Below are positions 47,876-60,410 of a stretch of 64,000 bases of DNA, in pieces. The position numbers were made by a program, and so were the translations under genes. Each line of letters begins with the position of its first letter. The stretch's first letter is position 1. Under the pieces are notes generated by a model, which saw only the letters and a program-made list of their open reading frames with translations, was not told the DNA's origin and ran no database searches. This stretch comes from Chloroflexota bacterium. Its GTDB lineage: Bacteria; Chloroflexota; UBA6077; JACCZL01. The DNA lies in contig JADZEM010000187.1 in assembly GCA_020850535.1 (NCBI GenBank), positions 151,840 to 215,839 of the forward strand, read 5' to 3'.

Positions 47876-48427
47876 CTATCCAGCTGCACCCGTCAGGATG
47901 TTGCGGACGATCTCGCTGACGATCTTCATGTCAGCCTTGCCGCGCAGCTTCGGAGAGAGCGCCGCCATGGCCGCGCCCTGGGCCTTGAGTCCAGTGCTGA
48001 GGTCCATGCCGGCCAGCGTCTCGCGCACCACGACCTCGACCTGCTCGCGCGGCATCAGCTGCGGCAGGTACTTCTCGATCACCGCGAGCTGAGCCTCCTC
48101 GCGGGCGGCGAGGTCAGCCCGGTTGCCCTTGCGGAACTGGTCAATCGACTCGCGGTGCTGCTTCACCTGGCGGTTGACGACCCGCACGGCGTCATCGTCG
48201 GTCAACGTGTACGGTGCTCCCAGGTTCAGGACGCTGACGTCCACCGAGTTGAGGTTCGGGTAGCCGGCCTTCTTGGCGGCCGCGAGCACCTGCTGCTGCT
48301 GAAGGTCCAGCTCCTCCTTCTTGAGGGCAGCCCGCAACATCCGGACCGCGTCGCGGCGCACTTCATCGCCCGACCGCATGGCATCCTTCAGTTCATCCGT
48401 TAGCTTCTGCTCGATCTCGGTGGCCAC
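47876..48427 (-). CDS. GatB/YqeY domain protein
   Basis: Full-length similarity pattern to YqeY (LKDAMRSGD...LKKEE...IEKYLP). Confidence 0.8.
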   Translation of the reverse strand: MATEIEQKLTDELKDAMRSGDEVRRDAVRMLRAALKKEELDLQQQQVLAAAKKAGYPNLNSVDVSVLNLGAPYTLTDDDAVRVVNRQVKQHRESIDQFRKGNRADLAAREEAQLAVIEKYLPQLMPREQVEVVVRETLAGMDLSTGLKAQGAAMAALSPKLRGKADMKIVSEIVRNILTGAAG

Positions 48428-48673
48428 AGCTCGCTCTCACCAGGAGTCGGTCTCTCGGGATCGAGTATACACCCGTCCCGCGCCGCGCACGCGCATTGCG
48501 CGGGCAGGGCAATCGCATGTTCGTTGGCGTTCCCAGAACGTGGTGAGACGCGCTCAACATGCACGCCCATTGTGCGGCATTCGGGCAACCACCGGCCCGA
48601 CGCGGACTGCGGGGTCTGGCCCCCTGCGTCCGAGATTGCCTTTGCACCTGGAACGGTCTACCATCAGCACGCG

Positions 48674-49144
48674 ATGGAGATCCTGGAACGGCTTCTGCCC
48701 TCGTACTGGTGGACCGATCCCTCGGACGCGATTGGCGGGCCGCTGTGGGCGGCTTTCGCAGCGCTGCTCGGGCTGATGCTGGTGGCCGGAGTTGCCGCGT
48801 GGCTGTTGGCCCCACGCCTCGCGCCACACCACAGCCTGCACCGACGCCTGATCGTGCGGGCTGCGAAGTGGGTCGTGGGGTTTGCCGTCTGCGGGCTGTT
48901 CCTGCTGCTCTTCCGCTGGCAGCAGACGCCGTTCCTGTCCAGGCGGCTCTGGCTGTTCGTCTGGCTGGGGGCGGTGGTCGCCGCTGGCGTGTTCGCCCAA
49001 CGCTACCGCACGCGGACCTACCCGGAGGCGCTGGCCGCCTGGAACGACGAGGACCGCATCCGCCGGTACCTGCCGAAGCGCAGCCAGAGCGGCGGGCACC
49101 GGGGCGGCCACGCTCACCGCCCCAAGGGCCGCCGTCGCCGTTAG
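48674..49144 (+). CDS. hypothetical membrane protein with basic C-terminal tail
   Basis: Three hydrophobic helices. ATG 48674 chosen; the upstream part of the track ORF is low-quality. Confidence 0.35.
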   Translation: MEILERLLPSYWWTDPSDAIGGPLWAAFAALLGLMLVAGVAAWLLAPRLAPHHSLHRRLIVRAAKWVVGFAVCGLFLLLFRWQQTPFLSRRLWLFVWLGAVVAAGVFAQRYRTRTYPEALAAWNDEDRIRRYLPKRSQSGGHRGGHAHRPKGRRRR

Positions 49145-55680: not shown

Positions 55681-55917
55681 ATGACTGCTGCCCCACGCCG
55701 GACGGTCCTGGTGACCGGCGCTACTGGCTACATCGCTTCCCAGATGCTCCCGACCTTCCGCGAGCGCTACGACGTTCGCCTGATCGACGTGCGCGACACC
55801 GATCGCGCGGGCAATCCCGTTCAGGGCGCACAGGTCGTCGATCTGCTGCACGTCGGCAAGATGGACATGGTCGATCCCGACCTGACGCCGTCGAAGTCGG
55901 ACAGCTTCTACGGCTGA
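55681..55917 (+). pseudogene. internally deleted, truncated paralog fragment of the adjacent NAD-dependent epimerase/dehydratase gene
   Basis: Residues 8-50 are about 80% identical to residues 8-50 of the 56099-56986 product, and the last 24 aa match its residues 137-160. About 85 codons are missing in between and everything after is lost. Confidence 0.6.
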
Positions 55918-56098: not shown

Positions 56099-56986
56099 AT
56101 GTCCGGAGCCAAGCCGACCGTCCTTGTGACGGGCGCAACGGGGTACATCGCCTCCCAGATGCTGCCGACCTTTCGCGAACGGTACGACCTGCGCCTGATC
56201 GACATGAGGGACACCGACCGAGATGGCAACCGGGTGGAGGATGCCCAGGTCGCGAGCATGCTGGACGGCCCCGACGAGGAGATCCGACCGCTTTTCACGG
56301 GCGCAGACGCCGTCGTGCATCTTGCCTACCACCGTGGATCTCTTGGTACTGGGCCGAGCGGGGACGGGCGTGACTTCGAAGATGAAGAGCCCAACGTCGC
56401 GATGGCGAACCGAGTCTACCGGCTCGCGCTTCAAGAGGGCGTGCGCCGCGTTGTGGTCGCCAGCTCCAATCATGCCGCCGACTGGTATGAGGAGCTGCTG
56501 CACATTGGGAAGATGGACATGGTCGATCCCGACCGCACGCCTCCTCGCTCCGACAATTTCTATGGTTGGAGCAAATTGGCATATGAAAGTCTCGGGTTCT
56601 TGTACGCGAGCGGCTCTCGCGGTCGAAAGTTGGGGAATGTCCAGATCCGGATTGGCGCGCCGCGCCCGATTGTCGCCGCCCGGTTCTTTCCGAATGGCCC
56701 GACTGGCGACGGGGCGAATCCTACGGGCTATAAGCGTGACCTCGGTGCCTACATTAGCCCTCGCGACCTGACTCAGCTTTTCGTCAAGTCAATTGAGACG
56801 CCGAGCATTGAGGATGAGTACGGTATTCCGTTCCAGGTCTTCTACGGGATCTCCGGCAACGCCCGCGCCTTCTGGAGCATCGTCAACGCCCACAGGGTGA
56901 TCGGCTACGCGCCCCAGGACGATGCCGAGCTCAAGTTCTCGGACGACATCCGAGCATACCTCGTGGAGCCAGCAGCCGGCCGGTAA
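56099..56986 (+). CDS. NAD(P)-dependent epimerase/dehydratase family protein (extended SDR)
   Basis: VTGATGYIASQ Rossmann motif and YGWSK (YxxxK). Preceded by an AT-rich 180-bp region; the 3' half of the gene has lower GC than its surroundings. Confidence 0.8.
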   Translation: MSGAKPTVLVTGATGYIASQMLPTFRERYDLRLIDMRDTDRDGNRVEDAQVASMLDGPDEEIRPLFTGADAVVHLAYHRGSLGTGPSGDGRDFEDEEPNVAMANRVYRLALQEGVRRVVVASSNHAADWYEELLHIGKMDMVDPDRTPPRSDNFYGWSKLAYESLGFLYASGSRGRKLGNVQIRIGAPRPIVAARFFPNGPTGDGANPTGYKRDLGAYISPRDLTQLFVKSIETPSIEDEYGIPFQVFYGISGNARAFWSIVNAHRVIGYAPQDDAELKFSDDIRAYLVEPAAGR

Positions 56987-57000
56987 CCCTTCGACGGAGA

Positions 57001-57217
57001 CAGGGCGATTGCATGACAAGCACGTCCTGCGACCTCGTCGGGGGCTGAAGTCCCCGCCTGCCATCATGCTGTCGCTCTGCGACGCTCCTGTCTCACGTGG
57101 CGATGGTTGATCCGGTCCTTCGTCGCGCAGCGACTGAATGACGGTAGGCGGGGACTTCAGTCCCTGACCGCCCGATTCACCGTCTTCAGGAACACCAGAG
57201 ATCATGCAATCGCCCTG
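57001..57217. mobile_element. MITE-like non-autonomous element: 217 bp, perfect 16-bp terminal inverted repeats CAGGGCGATTGCATGA, internal nested palindromes, flanked by 9-bp direct repeat CGACGGAGA
   Basis: TIRs at 57001-57016 and 57202-57217 are exact reverse complements. Flanking CGACGGAGA at 56992-57000 and 57219-57227 is a candidate target-site duplication. No ORF of its own. Confidence 0.55.
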
Positions 57218-57370
57218 CCGACGGAGAGACGGCCGGGCGATCGCGCTGACCGAACCGGACGGCTGCGGCGGGTTCGATCGACGAGTTGCTATCATCAGCC
57301 CCGATGCGGGAAGACCGTTCTGGTGGCGTGTGCGCCTGCCAACATCGATCGCGAGCGGGCGGACGCGCAG

Positions 57371-59572
57371 ATGGCAGCAACTGACAGCGCTCTCGGGCGT
57401 GCCCGCGCGGTGGCCATCCCGAGTCTGCGCCCGCTGACCGCCCGCGACGCCGTCTTCGCCGCCGGGCTGCTGCTGGCGCTGGCCGGAGCGGCCGTCGTGC
57501 AGACGCCCTGGCTGGCGGCCGGCGCGCTGGGCTGGGCGCTCGGCCTCCTGGTCATGGTGGCCAGCACCACCTATCGCCAGACAATCCGCGATCTGCTCGC
57601 CATCCGCATCGGCCGCCTGGAAGCCGTGAGCCTCGGCGTCGTGCTTGCCTGCGCCGCCGCCGCCCGCCTGTGGTCGCTGGCCGACCTGCCGCTCGGGATC
57701 CACATCGACGAGGCCGTGATGGGCCTGATCGCCCGGGACATCCTCCAGGGTCGAGGGCCGCACCCGTTCGGCTTCGCGTTCATCTCCGATCCCGCCCCGC
57801 TCATGTACGTCAAGGCGGCCGCAATGGCCCTCTTCGGCCAGGGGATGTTCCCGCAGCGGCTGGTGGCAGCCCTGGCCGGCATCGGGAGTGTGGCCGCGCT
57901 GTGGGTCTTCGCACGCCCACTCTTCGGGAGCGGCGTCGCGCTGCTCGCCACGACCCTCCTCGCCGTCACCGTGTCACACATCTTCTTCAGCCGCCTCGCC
58001 CTCACCATCATCGAGATCCCGTTCCTGGGACTGCTGGCTGTCGCGCTGATCTGGCGCGGCCTGCGAACGGAGCAGGTGGCCTGGCACACCCTCGGCGGCG
58101 TCGCGCTCGGCTTCGCACAGTACGCCAACTTCGGGGCGCGGGCGTTCGTGTTGGCAGTGGCCGCGCTCTATCTGGTCATGATGGCCACGCACTACCGCTC
58201 GTGGTGGCCGATCTTCCGTGGCGGCGTGCTGGCAGCCATCGGGATGCTGGCCGTGCTCGGGCCGCAGCTTGCCTATGTCCGCGACGATCCGTACCAGTTG
58301 TACGACCGGCTCCAGTTTCGGTCGGTCTTCCGGCGTTGGGATCAGGCGACCGAGATCCACCAGACCACCGACCCGGTTCGGGTGATGCTTGGACAGGCGA
58401 TCATCAACGTGCGGGCCTTCGTCGACGTGCCGGATCGCGGCACCTTCTTCGAGTTCGCCCACGAGCCCCTGCTGTACGGGCCGGTGGCGGCGCTGCTGGT
58501 AGTGGGGGTCGCCGTGGCGCTCTGGCGCGTCGGCCAGCCCCGCTACGCCTGCCTCTTCCTGATCTCCGGCGGCGTGCTGCTGGGCGGCATCATGAGCGCC
58601 GGCGCGCCGCAGTTTCACCGCCTCGTCGCGCTGACGCCGGTGGCCTGCCTGTTTGCGGCCATCGGACTGCTGACGGTGTGCCAGGGGATCGACCGCGTCA
58701 TCGGGCGATTCCGGCCCTCGCTGGTCGGCGTCGTGCCGCTGGCGATGTCGCTGCTGCTGGTCGGCGCGACAACTGCCGACACCGCCAACGCGATGCTGGT
58801 GCGCTACCCGGCCGAGCTGCCCTGGCAGCCACACTCGGCCTGGGCGCGCTGGGTGGCAGAGCAGCCAGCCGGCCGGACGGTGTATGTCGCTGGCGCACCG
58901 GAGGTGCGGGCCTGGGACGAGCGGCTGCGCTTCCTGGCGGAATCTCGCCCGCTGACCGACCTGACCAACCTCAGCGAGGCGGTCCCGGCGCTGTTGGCCG
59001 ATCCGCGGCCGGCCACCATCGCGCTCAGCCCCCGGCTGGCGGACTGGCAGCCAACCCTCGAGCAGATGATCCCCGGCGCGACGTTCGGGGCGGCGCTGGG
59101 GCCAGACGGCAAGGTCGCCATCGTCACCGTGGACGTGCCGGCCGGCCCGCGCCCGGCCGCCGAGCCGCGCGGCCTGCAAGGCGTCCTGCTGATCGACGAC
59201 AGCCAGGGCGAGGAAGAGCGCCATCGCCTCGACGCCGTGCTGGCCTTTCGCGAGGCGTCGGCCCTGACCGGCAACCGGCCGTTCGACGTGACCTGGACCG
59301 GCAGCCTGCTGGCGGACCGGGACGGGGCCTACCGCTTCGAATGTCTCACCGATGGCGTGGCCGAGTTGACGATTGACGGCAAACCCGTGCTCAGCGCAAA
59401 ACGGGCTGCCGAGCCACGGGTCGCGCGGGGCGAGGCCCGACTGACTCCCGGCCAGCACGCCGTGACGGTCACCTACAGCTACCAGCGCGGCCCCGGCACG
59501 TTCGAGCTGCGCTGGCAGCCGCCGGACGGCGCGCGCACGCTCATCCCGCCATCGGCGTTTCGGCCGGAGTAG
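57371..59572 (+). CDS. glycosyltransferase family 39 (ArnT/PMT-like) membrane protein fused to a C-terminal PA14 domain
   Basis: About 12 TM helices with the GT39 DE-like loop (IHIDEAV). C-terminal beta-rich domain with the PA14-like pattern (GAYRFECLTDGVAELTIDGKPVL...GQHAVTVTYSYQRGPGTFELRW). ATG 57371 chosen downstream of the MITE. Confidence 0.7.
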   Translation: MAATDSALGRARAVAIPSLRPLTARDAVFAAGLLLALAGAAVVQTPWLAAGALGWALGLLVMVASTTYRQTIRDLLAIRIGRLEAVSLGVVLACAAAARLWSLADLPLGIHIDEAVMGLIARDILQGRGPHPFGFAFISDPAPLMYVKAAAMALFGQGMFPQRLVAALAGIGSVAALWVFARPLFGSGVALLATTLLAVTVSHIFFSRLALTIIEIPFLGLLAVALIWRGLRTEQVAWHTLGGVALGFAQYANFGARAFVLAVAALYLVMMATHYRSWWPIFRGGVLAAIGMLAVLGPQLAYVRDDPYQLYDRLQFRSVFRRWDQATEIHQTTDPVRVMLGQAIINVRAFVDVPDRGTFFEFAHEPLLYGPVAALLVVGVAVALWRVGQPRYACLFLISGGVLLGGIMSAGAPQFHRLVALTPVACLFAAIGLLTVCQGIDRVIGRFRPSLVGVVPLAMSLLLVGATTADTANAMLVRYPAELPWQPHSAWARWVAEQPAGRTVYVAGAPEVRAWDERLRFLAESRPLTDLTNLSEAVPALLADPRPATIALSPRLADWQPTLEQMIPGATFGAALGPDGKVAIVTVDVPAGPRPAAEPRGLQGVLLIDDSQGEEERHRLDAVLAFREASALTGNRPFDVTWTGSLLADRDGAYRFECLTDGVAELTIDGKPVLSAKRAAEPRVARGEARLTPGQHAVTVTYSYQRGPGTFELRWQPPDGARTLIPPSAFRPE

Positions 59573-59650
59573 TGGCGCGCGGCCCCCAGACCGGCACGTA
59601 GACGCAATGTGGCCCGGCCGATGAGACGAGGACGGTCACAGGCGGGCCGC

Positions 59651-60064
59651 TCAGGCGTCGGGGCTGATGCCCAGCGCCGCCAACCGCTCGTCCACGAAGC
59701 GTCGGACGTCGCCGGCCACTTCCAGCGCGCGCGCCGAGTCGGTCGCTTCGTACGCATCGCCCGGGACGCCGCCGGGCAGCGTGGTAGGATAGCGCGCCCC
59801 GAGGAAGTGCTTGTCGAGCAGCACGGCCACCGTCTTGATCAGATCAAAAGACGGATCGAGCGCCAGCGCGTCCTCGCAGAGGTCGGCCAGGGCATGCCCC
59901 CAGACCCGCTCAGCCCCGCGCGCCAGCAGGTACGCGGTGACAGCTTTCTCGGCGGCCTGGTGGCTGAGGAAACAGGCCAGCGCGTGCCGGCCGCTCTCGG
60001 CCACAAAGCCCGCGTCCGCGAGATCGAGCGCCGACTGCCGGAGCCAGGCCCTGACCGGTCGCAT
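59651..60064 (-). CDS. HEPN domain protein (toxin component of a HEPN-MNT module)
   Basis: HEPN four-helix pattern with conserved Arg/His region (AERVWGHAL). Start either ATG 60064 or GTG 60091; lies immediately downstream of the MNT gene. Confidence 0.7.
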   Translation of the reverse strand: MRPVRAWLRQSALDLADAGFVAESGRHALACFLSHQAAEKAVTAYLLARGAERVWGHALADLCEDALALDPSFDLIKTVAVLLDKHFLGARYPTTLPGGVPGDAYEATDSARALEVAGDVRRFVDERLAALGISPDA

Positions 60065-60071
60065 CCTGCTG

Positions 60072-60410
60072 TCAGCCAAGCAGCGCCTCACCTTCGGTCA
60101 TCGCGTGCTGAAGCAGCGGGTCAGACTCGGCGCACTCGTCGACCTCGTCGGGCGTGTAGACGAGGTAGCGCGTCCCGACTCGCGGTCGCAGGTGGCTCTC
60201 CCAGAACTCGCCGCGCCGCTGGAACGGCTCGTCAGTCTCTTGCACGATGACCAGCTCAAGCTCGGTTTCAGGATCGACCTGCCCGCGCGCGAACTCCCCG
60301 ACGATCCAGGTGGCCATCGCACCGTAGGGCGGAGCCTCCTGGGCAAATCGGCGAGCCTCAGCCTCGAGCTGCTGCCGACGGTGATCTGAGAATCCGAACA
60401 TCATCGGCAC
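60072..60410 (-). CDS. minimal nucleotidyltransferase (MNT, antitoxin component of HEPN-MNT module)
   Basis: GEFARGQVDPETELELVIV, i.e. the G(S/E)xARG...D.E nucleotidyltransferase motif. Start GTG 60410 or ATG 60404. Confidence 0.7.
   Translation of the reverse strand: MPMMFGFSDHRRQQLEAEARRFAQEAPPYGAMATWIVGEFARGQVDPETELELVIVQETDEPFQRRGEFWESHLRPRVGTRYLVYTPDEVDECAESDPLLQHAMTEGEALLG

Follow-up and report, generated by a model that had tools for sequence, protein, structure and literature searches.

A 217-bp palindromic element upstream of a GT39-PA14 gene in a Chloroflexota genome is probably an ISAs1-derived MITE

Introduction

The intergenic region between an epimerase gene and a glycosyltransferase gene of a Chloroflexota bacterium contains a strongly palindromic segment of 217 bp, and the question that it raises is whether it is a transposable element, the remnant of one, a structured regulatory sequence, or a product of chance. 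The segment is located at positions 57001 to 57217 of the window, which here means the whole 64-kb stretch of DNA that was analyzed (64,000 nucleotides of contig JADZEM010000187.1). A preliminary description, made from the sequence alone, had regarded it as a MITE-like insertion. It is well known that IS families give rise to MITEs, and bacterial examples include Correia/NEMIS in Neisseria, RUP in Streptococcus pneumoniae, ERIC/IRU, and Nezha. The MaeMITEs of Microcystis are bacterial IS-derived MITEs (PMC2779907).

Results and Discussion

Location of the element between two co-directional genes

The element, with both of its terminal inverted repeats (TIRs) included, extends from 57001 to 57217. 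The ORF upstream of it (56099-56986) encodes an NAD-dependent epimerase/dehydratase-family protein that is 100% identical to MCC7372123.1, and the TAA stop codon of this ORF is at 56984-56986. The ORF downstream (57371-59572) had been designated a GT39-PA14 gene, and its product, which is 100% identical to MCC7372124.1, is a GT39 (PMT_2) plus PA14 protein with its start at 57371. The element is intergenic between these co-directional genes, with 153 bp between the end of its right TIR and the GT39-PA14 start codon. MCC7372123.1 and MCC7372124.1 are consecutive accessions on one 218,587-bp NCBI contig, which means that the annotation has no gene in the interval. Each ORF overlapping the element is either short or an upstream extension of the GT39 frame, in agreement with the earlier statement that the interior encodes nothing; none of them is credible as a gene. 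The element had also been placed in the promoter or 5'-UTR region of the glycosyltransferase gene. The position is as described, but neither a sigma-70-type promoter consensus nor an intrinsic-terminator consensus was found in 56700-57600.

Terminal inverted repeats and flanking duplication

A repeat search of the window recovered the TIRs as a pair at 57001-57016 and 57202-57217, 185 nt apart, with 16 of 16 bases complementary, just as had been claimed. The left TIR reads CAGGGCGATTGCATGA on the plus strand. The right TIR has this 16-mer on the minus strand, so that the plus strand reads TCATGCAATCGCCCTG. Exact copies of CAGGGCGATTGCATGA are present at two sites only in the 64-kb window, both of them the TIRs of the element.

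The 10-bp sequences that abut the TIRs, TCGACGGAGA at 56991-57000 and CCGACGGAGA at 57218-57227, are identical at 9 positions. Measured from the epimerase stop codon, the left copy starts 5 bases and ends 14 bases downstream. A 9-bp target-site duplication had been described here, and the 9-mer CGACGGAGA is indeed present on both sides (56992-57000 and 57219-57227), with a single base, C at 57218, separating the right TIR from the right copy. The length of the duplication required refinement. Judged from these flanks, it would best fit the ISAs1 family, discussed below, either as 10 bp of which one is mismatched or as 9 bp and an additional base, in which case 57218 is a spacer preceding the repeat at 57219-57227.

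Palindromes abound in genomes of high GC content, and the 9-mer CGACGGAGA by itself is nothing unusual, with 3 copies in the 64-kb window compared with 2.1 expected. Both points would be compatible with an inverted repeat produced by chance in GC-rich intergenic DNA. However, with the 9-mer alone near its expected count, it is the placement of its two copies that matters rather than their rarity. The probability of a 9/10 match between the sequences abutting both TIRs is ~9e-5 from base composition, and empirically a match of at least 9/10 at the spacing of the element was found at 5 of 63,760 window positions. The 16-mer with up to 3 mismatches has 6 matches in the 64-kb window, compared with 0.76 expected. 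A chance origin is effectively refuted by the finding, described next, that the ends are exactly those of ISAs1, and we regard it as scarcely credible.

The same 16-mer terminates ISAs1-family ISs

A species-representative genome collection was scanned for the exact 16-mer, which yielded at least 120 loci (L028 to L147). Of the 129 matches listed, 82 have an A directly after the 16-mer, indicating that most of these matches are real element ends and not chance occurrences. Inverted pairs of the 16-mer enclose 1251-1283 bp in four loci (L080, L099, L100, and L132), and L132 is a 1264-bp contig that is essentially the element alone. The single long ORFs (382-384 aa) of the full-length elements match the NCBIfam model NF033564 (ISAs1 family transposase; E = 9e-123 and 3e-123), as well as the Pfam domains DDE_Tnp_1_assoc and DDE_Tnp_1. 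The geometry is consistent: in 20 of the 120 loci listed, the coding sequence of an ISAs1 transposase is found 23-108 bp inward of the 16-mer. Thus, the transposase with matching ends that the preliminary description had proposed to look for is of the ISAs1 family and was found in other bacteria; none is encoded in the 64-kb window. Elements with the exact 16-mer end were found in Pseudomonadota, Bdellovibrionota, Chlamydiota, Desulfobacterota, Acidobacteriota, and Chloroflexota, which is at least six phyla. A scan of viral contigs returned 17 single matches to the 16-mer, which is the level expected by chance.

Well-known members of the ISAs1 family are ISAs1 of Aeromonas salmonicida, the H-repeat/ISEc1 of Escherichia coli, and IS1358 of Vibrio cholerae. 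Members of the family have IRs of 14-22 bp that start with CAGGG and generate 10-bp DRs (PMC11946415). The IRs of the window element are 16 bp long, start with CAGGG, and are identical to the ends of the autonomous ISAs1-family ISs in L080, L099, L100, and L132. Its direct repeat matches at 9 of 10 positions over 10 bp, in a family in which direct repeats are 8-10 bp and typically 10 bp. The likeness to ISAs1-family ISs is confined to the ends and the 9- to 10-bp duplication. ISs of this family are ~1.2-1.5 kb long and have a transposase gene, whereas the window element is 217 bp long and has none, and its foldback interior is unrelated to the ISAs1-family ISs sampled. The hosts differ as well, the full-length ISs having been recovered mostly from Burkholderiales, plus a Bdellovibrionales MAG, and the window element from a Chloroflexota MAG.

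MITE-sized elements with the same ends in other genomes

When up to 3 mismatches were allowed in one partner of a TIR pair, the loci listed contained at least 25 pairs in total, of which at least 19 enclose 155-584 bp and at least 6 more enclose 1003-1602 bp. Small gene-less elements (155-584 bp) with the 16-mer ends are therefore many, and they are distributed over at least six phyla. Among the 19 sub-600-bp pairs listed, the 10-bp duplication is exact in 6 and matches at 9/10 positions in 4. Those with an exact 10-bp duplication are elements of 155 bp in a Desulfobacter MAG (L125, 1114-1268), 215 bp in Accumulibacter (L067, 1605-1819), 263 bp in Burkholderiaceae (L050, 2362-2624), 275 bp in Rhizobacter (L133), 310 bp in Undibacterium (L096), and 584 bp in Chlamydiota (L070, 2059-2642). 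The 9/10 duplications flank elements of 184 bp in Acidobacteriota (L038, 710-893), 190 bp in Undibacterium (L135), 206 bp in a Chloroflexota MAG (L057, 7616-7821), and 215 bp in Acidobacteriaceae (L114). With its 217 bp and its 9/10 duplication, the window element fits exactly into this series. The earlier designation of the window element as a non-autonomous transposable element is borne out by these comparisons, in that the same 16-mer ends both full-length ISAs1 ISs and MITE-sized elements with 10-bp duplications.

Small elements similar in length to the window element (L125, L067, L050, L057, and the 205-bp metagenomic element L157 being examples) have an identical TIR and a 10-bp duplication that is exact or matches at 9/10 positions. 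Their interiors are unrelated to the window interior, save for weak similarity in L057 and L157 (z ~3.6); one end of L157 shares 27 of 29 bases (93%) with the right end of the window element. Some of the small elements are strong foldbacks like the window element, and others are not. To judge from these interiors, the small elements are probably separate MITE lineages that have only the transposase-binding ends in common.

Three of the five elements with a 9/10 duplication, namely the window element, L038 710-893, and L057 7616-7821, have their single mismatch at the first repeat position, which on the left is the base farthest from the TIR and on the right the base adjoining it. This recurrence hints at a 9-bp duplication with an extra base at the right end rather than at random substitution, and from their sequences the three elements can equally be read as having a 9-bp duplication plus an extra base beside the right end. 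A clean 9-bp duplication flanks L072. The 9-bp and 10-bp readings are both within the range of the ISAs1 family.

Structure of the interior

The non-coding interior (57017-57201) is a foldback with imperfect inverted arms. The nested palindromes that had been described within it correspond to arms of 48 nt, at 57037-57084 and 57121-57168, that are 83% complementary in the repeat search. Each arm contains a small palindrome, GGGGnCTKMAGnCCC, and the two halves of the element can be aligned when one of them is reverse-complemented. The element also contains two degenerate TIR-like sequences, one on the minus strand at 57064-57079 (3 mismatches) and one on the plus strand at 57126-57141 (5 mismatches). 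Taken as boundaries, these inner sequences split the element into two TIR-hairpin-TIR units, one of 79 bp and the other of 92 bp, arranged as a foldback. The foldback and the decayed inner TIR-like sequences suggest that the element might have originated by inverted duplication of a smaller TIR-hairpin-TIR unit, an origin that we offer as speculation from the sequence. The palindrome GGGGnCTTCAGnCCC was considered as a genome-wide REP-like repeat, and this was rejected for the 64-kb window, where it was found inside the element only.

The RNA fold predicted for the element with its flanks (236 nt, 56992-57227) has an energy of -129.9 kcal/mol, with z = -8.4 relative to shuffled sequences, and the interior without the TIRs still has z = -6.1. 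An extremely stable fold 153 bp upstream of GT39-PA14 is what might be expected of a conserved structured regulatory RNA or DNA of that gene, such as a leader or attenuator, with the TIR-like ends and the flanking repeat being coincidental or secondary. However, every base of the ends agrees with transposase-associated IS ends of other phyla, and the family-typical 10-bp duplication is present. An Rfam scan produced no match in the element, its two hits (E = 3.9 and 7.9) being at chance level and both outside the element, and the lack of promoter and terminator consensus reported above likewise argues against such a function. The evidence from relatives that bears on this explanation is considered below.

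Search for further copies

No second intact copy of the element was found in the 64-kb window, and a plasmid collection searched in distant mode contained no match. Exact 20-mers of either end, consisting of the TIR and four degenerate bases, were found at 13 loci in JGI metagenome contigs, none of which is a copy of the window element. Among the matches listed from the at least 120 genome loci, which do not include the source genome, none matches the window interior.

Only one intact copy in the 64-kb window and in the metagenome contigs searched is also what would be seen if the element were not a member of an amplified MITE family and instead were a one-off remnant of a full-length ISAs1 that lost its transposase at this site by internal deletion. 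The TIRs and the duplication would look alike in either case, and intermediate deletion derivatives with the same TIRs that retain transposase fragments do exist (L072, 1003 bp; L123, 544 bp). However, the window interior has no tblastn similarity to ISAs1 transposases and none to the sub-terminal regions of the sampled ISs, and a foldback with inner TIR-like sequences is an architecture typical of MITEs. A diverged related element at a contig end in another genome (L165, see below) is a further point against a one-off deletion, which we consider unlikely.

Elsewhere in the window, the sequence GGCAGGGCAATCGCATGTTCGTTGGCGTTCCCAGAAC at 48503-48533 resembles the right end of the element read inward (80% over 31 nt; E = 0.012 within the window). 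The intergenic region around it measures 250 bp in the window and only ~90 bp in the relative L001, and from its resemblance to the right end this sequence may represent a solitary, decayed end of an ISAs1-type element related to this one. When window 48395-48700 was aligned with L001 to test for a relic end at this site, the intergenic DNA was highly diverged.

The junction after the epimerase gene is variable among relatives

The empty site expected from joining the flanks is GGCCGGTAACCCT[T/C]CGACGGAGAGACGGCCGGGCG, with one copy of [T/C]CGACGGAGA. The comparison covered the epimerase homologues L001 to L010 and L148 to L151, together with L165, which has the closest GT39-PA14 homologue. The same junction without the element was found in none of these loci, because the relatives, whose epimerases are 81-89% identical, have different genes after the epimerase. 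An ALGX-domain (ALGX/GDSL-like) gene follows it in L001, L151, and L005/L006 (85% and 81-83% identical), and in L005/L006 GT39-PA14 is located upstream of the epimerase. In L148 (89% identical) the epimerase is followed by unrelated genes of lower GC content. A blastn search of the window intergenic region against the relatives' loci returned nothing. These differences indicate that the segment after the epimerase is a variable spot and that the MITE is located exactly at its edge. The segments compared were window 56987-60410, L001 10880-12940, L005 7600-12110, and L148 4580-5900. In the window and in L165 the variable segment contains GT39-PA14 and the MITE, or in L165 a related element.

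Just upstream of the intact epimerase gene, at 55681-55917 of the window, lies a second, truncated copy of its 5' part. It is 82% identical to L001 10001-10167 and 83% identical to L001 10397-10473. In the closest relative, L148, a 160-aa epimerase fragment likewise precedes the full-length gene. The positions of these fragments in the window and L148 suggest that a local duplication or rearrangement took place here long ago.

A diverged relative of the element upstream of an orthologous GT39-PA14 gene

The sole close homologue of GT39-PA14 that was found (71% amino-acid and 75% nucleotide identity) is on L165, a 3-kb Logan contig of SRR33230288. It is the only relative with the same arrangement downstream, GT39-PA14 being followed by the same HEPN gene as in the window, and the contig begins inside sequence related to the element. 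Positions 1-34 of L165 match the reverse complement of window 57035-57068 at 85%, positions 8-24 (GTAGGCGGGGGCTTCAG) match window 57144-57160 at 16 of 17 bases, and positions 52-66 (ATGCAAAACCCCTGG) resemble the right TIR, with a local alignment score ~6 sd above that of shuffled sequences. The remaining intergenic DNA of L165 is not alignable with the window. L165 1-67 thus has the appearance of a decayed relative of the element, composed of a hairpin arm and a degenerate right TIR; it occupies the very beginning of the contig, and ~105 bp separate it from the orthologous GT39-PA14 gene downstream. A good promoter-like sequence, TTGACA-N17-TACCAT, is located directly after L165 1-67; the window does not have such a sequence.

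The presence of related sequence in a relative had been named in the preliminary description as a finding that would favor a conserved structured RNA or regulatory region over an insertion. What L165 has is related upstream sequence, as anticipated there, but it is decayed, and its degenerate TIR and the contig end point to an older family member. A similar hairpin arm and an end-like motif upstream of an orthologue, while the other intergenic DNA is unalignable, could be taken as support for a regulatory function. However, the decayed TIR and a 10-nt deletion look like neutral decay rather than conservation, and nothing similar is present upstream of the L005 and L006 orthologues of GT39-PA14. 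Considering all of this evidence together, we judge a regulatory RNA or DNA to be very improbable. From its sequence, L165 1-67 looks like a member of the same MITE family, which would agree with a repeated family, and the decayed TIR, the deletion, and the assembly break make it look like an older or independent member.

Interpretation and proposed mechanism

ISAs1 ends, a duplication typical of the family, and the lack of a transposase gene lead to the conclusion that window 57001-57217 is, with high probability, an ISAs1-derived non-autonomous transposable element (MITE). It has the size of a MITE (tens to ~600 bp), TIRs, and a target-site duplication. Against this reading stand the single intact copy in the sequences searched, the lack of an ISAs1 transposase in the 64-kb window, and the imperfect duplication. 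It resembles the known bacterial MITEs in being small and non-coding, in its TIRs and target-site duplication, in its intergenic position between co-directional genes, and in its strong hairpin potential, and it differs from them in its parent family, ISAs1.

The element presumably was moved in trans by an ISAs1-family transposase. In the mechanism that we propose, a DDE transposase of this family, encoded elsewhere in the genome now or formerly, would have bound both CAGGG... ends; the element would have been inserted at a staggered 9- to 10-bp cut in the intergenic region between the epimerase and GT39-PA14 genes; and repair of the gaps would have produced the target-site duplication. Perfect canonical TIRs and an almost intact duplication speak for an insertion that is recent compared with the divergence of the available relatives. 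The similarity to L165 also allows an old orthologous element instead of a recent jump, and it is compatible both with an ancient orthologous insertion that was refreshed in the window lineage and with independent insertions with a target preference.

Hairpins formed by other bacterial MITEs (Correia, ERIC, and RUP) in transcripts have been described as RNase III targets or as causes of pausing. By analogy, the long hairpin of the window element, in a possible read-through transcript, could be an RNase III target or could cause transcription pausing, and it could affect mRNA processing or stability; any such effect on the neighboring genes would be incidental.

Implications

In the literature searched, no description of ISAs1-derived MITEs or of the TIR string was found, which makes the assignment to this family and the breadth of such elements across phyla mildly new. 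The element is selfish DNA of an ordinary kind, although the ISAs1 family has seldom been connected with MITEs, and the current understanding of transposition is unchanged by it. A more far-reaching proposal is that the ISAs1 end CAGGGCGATTGCATGA(A), which is conserved base for base in at least six phyla, gave rise in each of them to independent MITE lineages with unrelated interiors, that these lineages together constitute an undescribed pan-bacterial superfamily of ISAs1-mobilized MITEs, that its Chloroflexota member marks and may have promoted the rearrangement of GT39-PA14 downstream of the epimerase, and that the relative in L165 could reflect co-option upstream of GT39-PA14. We consider this proposal doubtful.

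With the assignment to ISAs1, an anonymous palindromic intergenic segment in the genome of an uncultured Chloroflexota bacterium is now placed in a specific transposon family. The assignment explains why no gene is called at this position and warns against reading the hairpin as a regulatory RNA. The ends of ISAs1 elements are unusually invariant across phyla, and MITEs of the ISAs1 type are widespread. Recognizing them is useful for the annotation of repeats in MAGs because such repeats break assemblies, many of the matches listed being located ~100-150 bp from contig ends. In the Chloroflexota genome, an insertion at a junction that varies among relatives is a candidate marker of recent rearrangement around a cell-envelope glycosylation gene.
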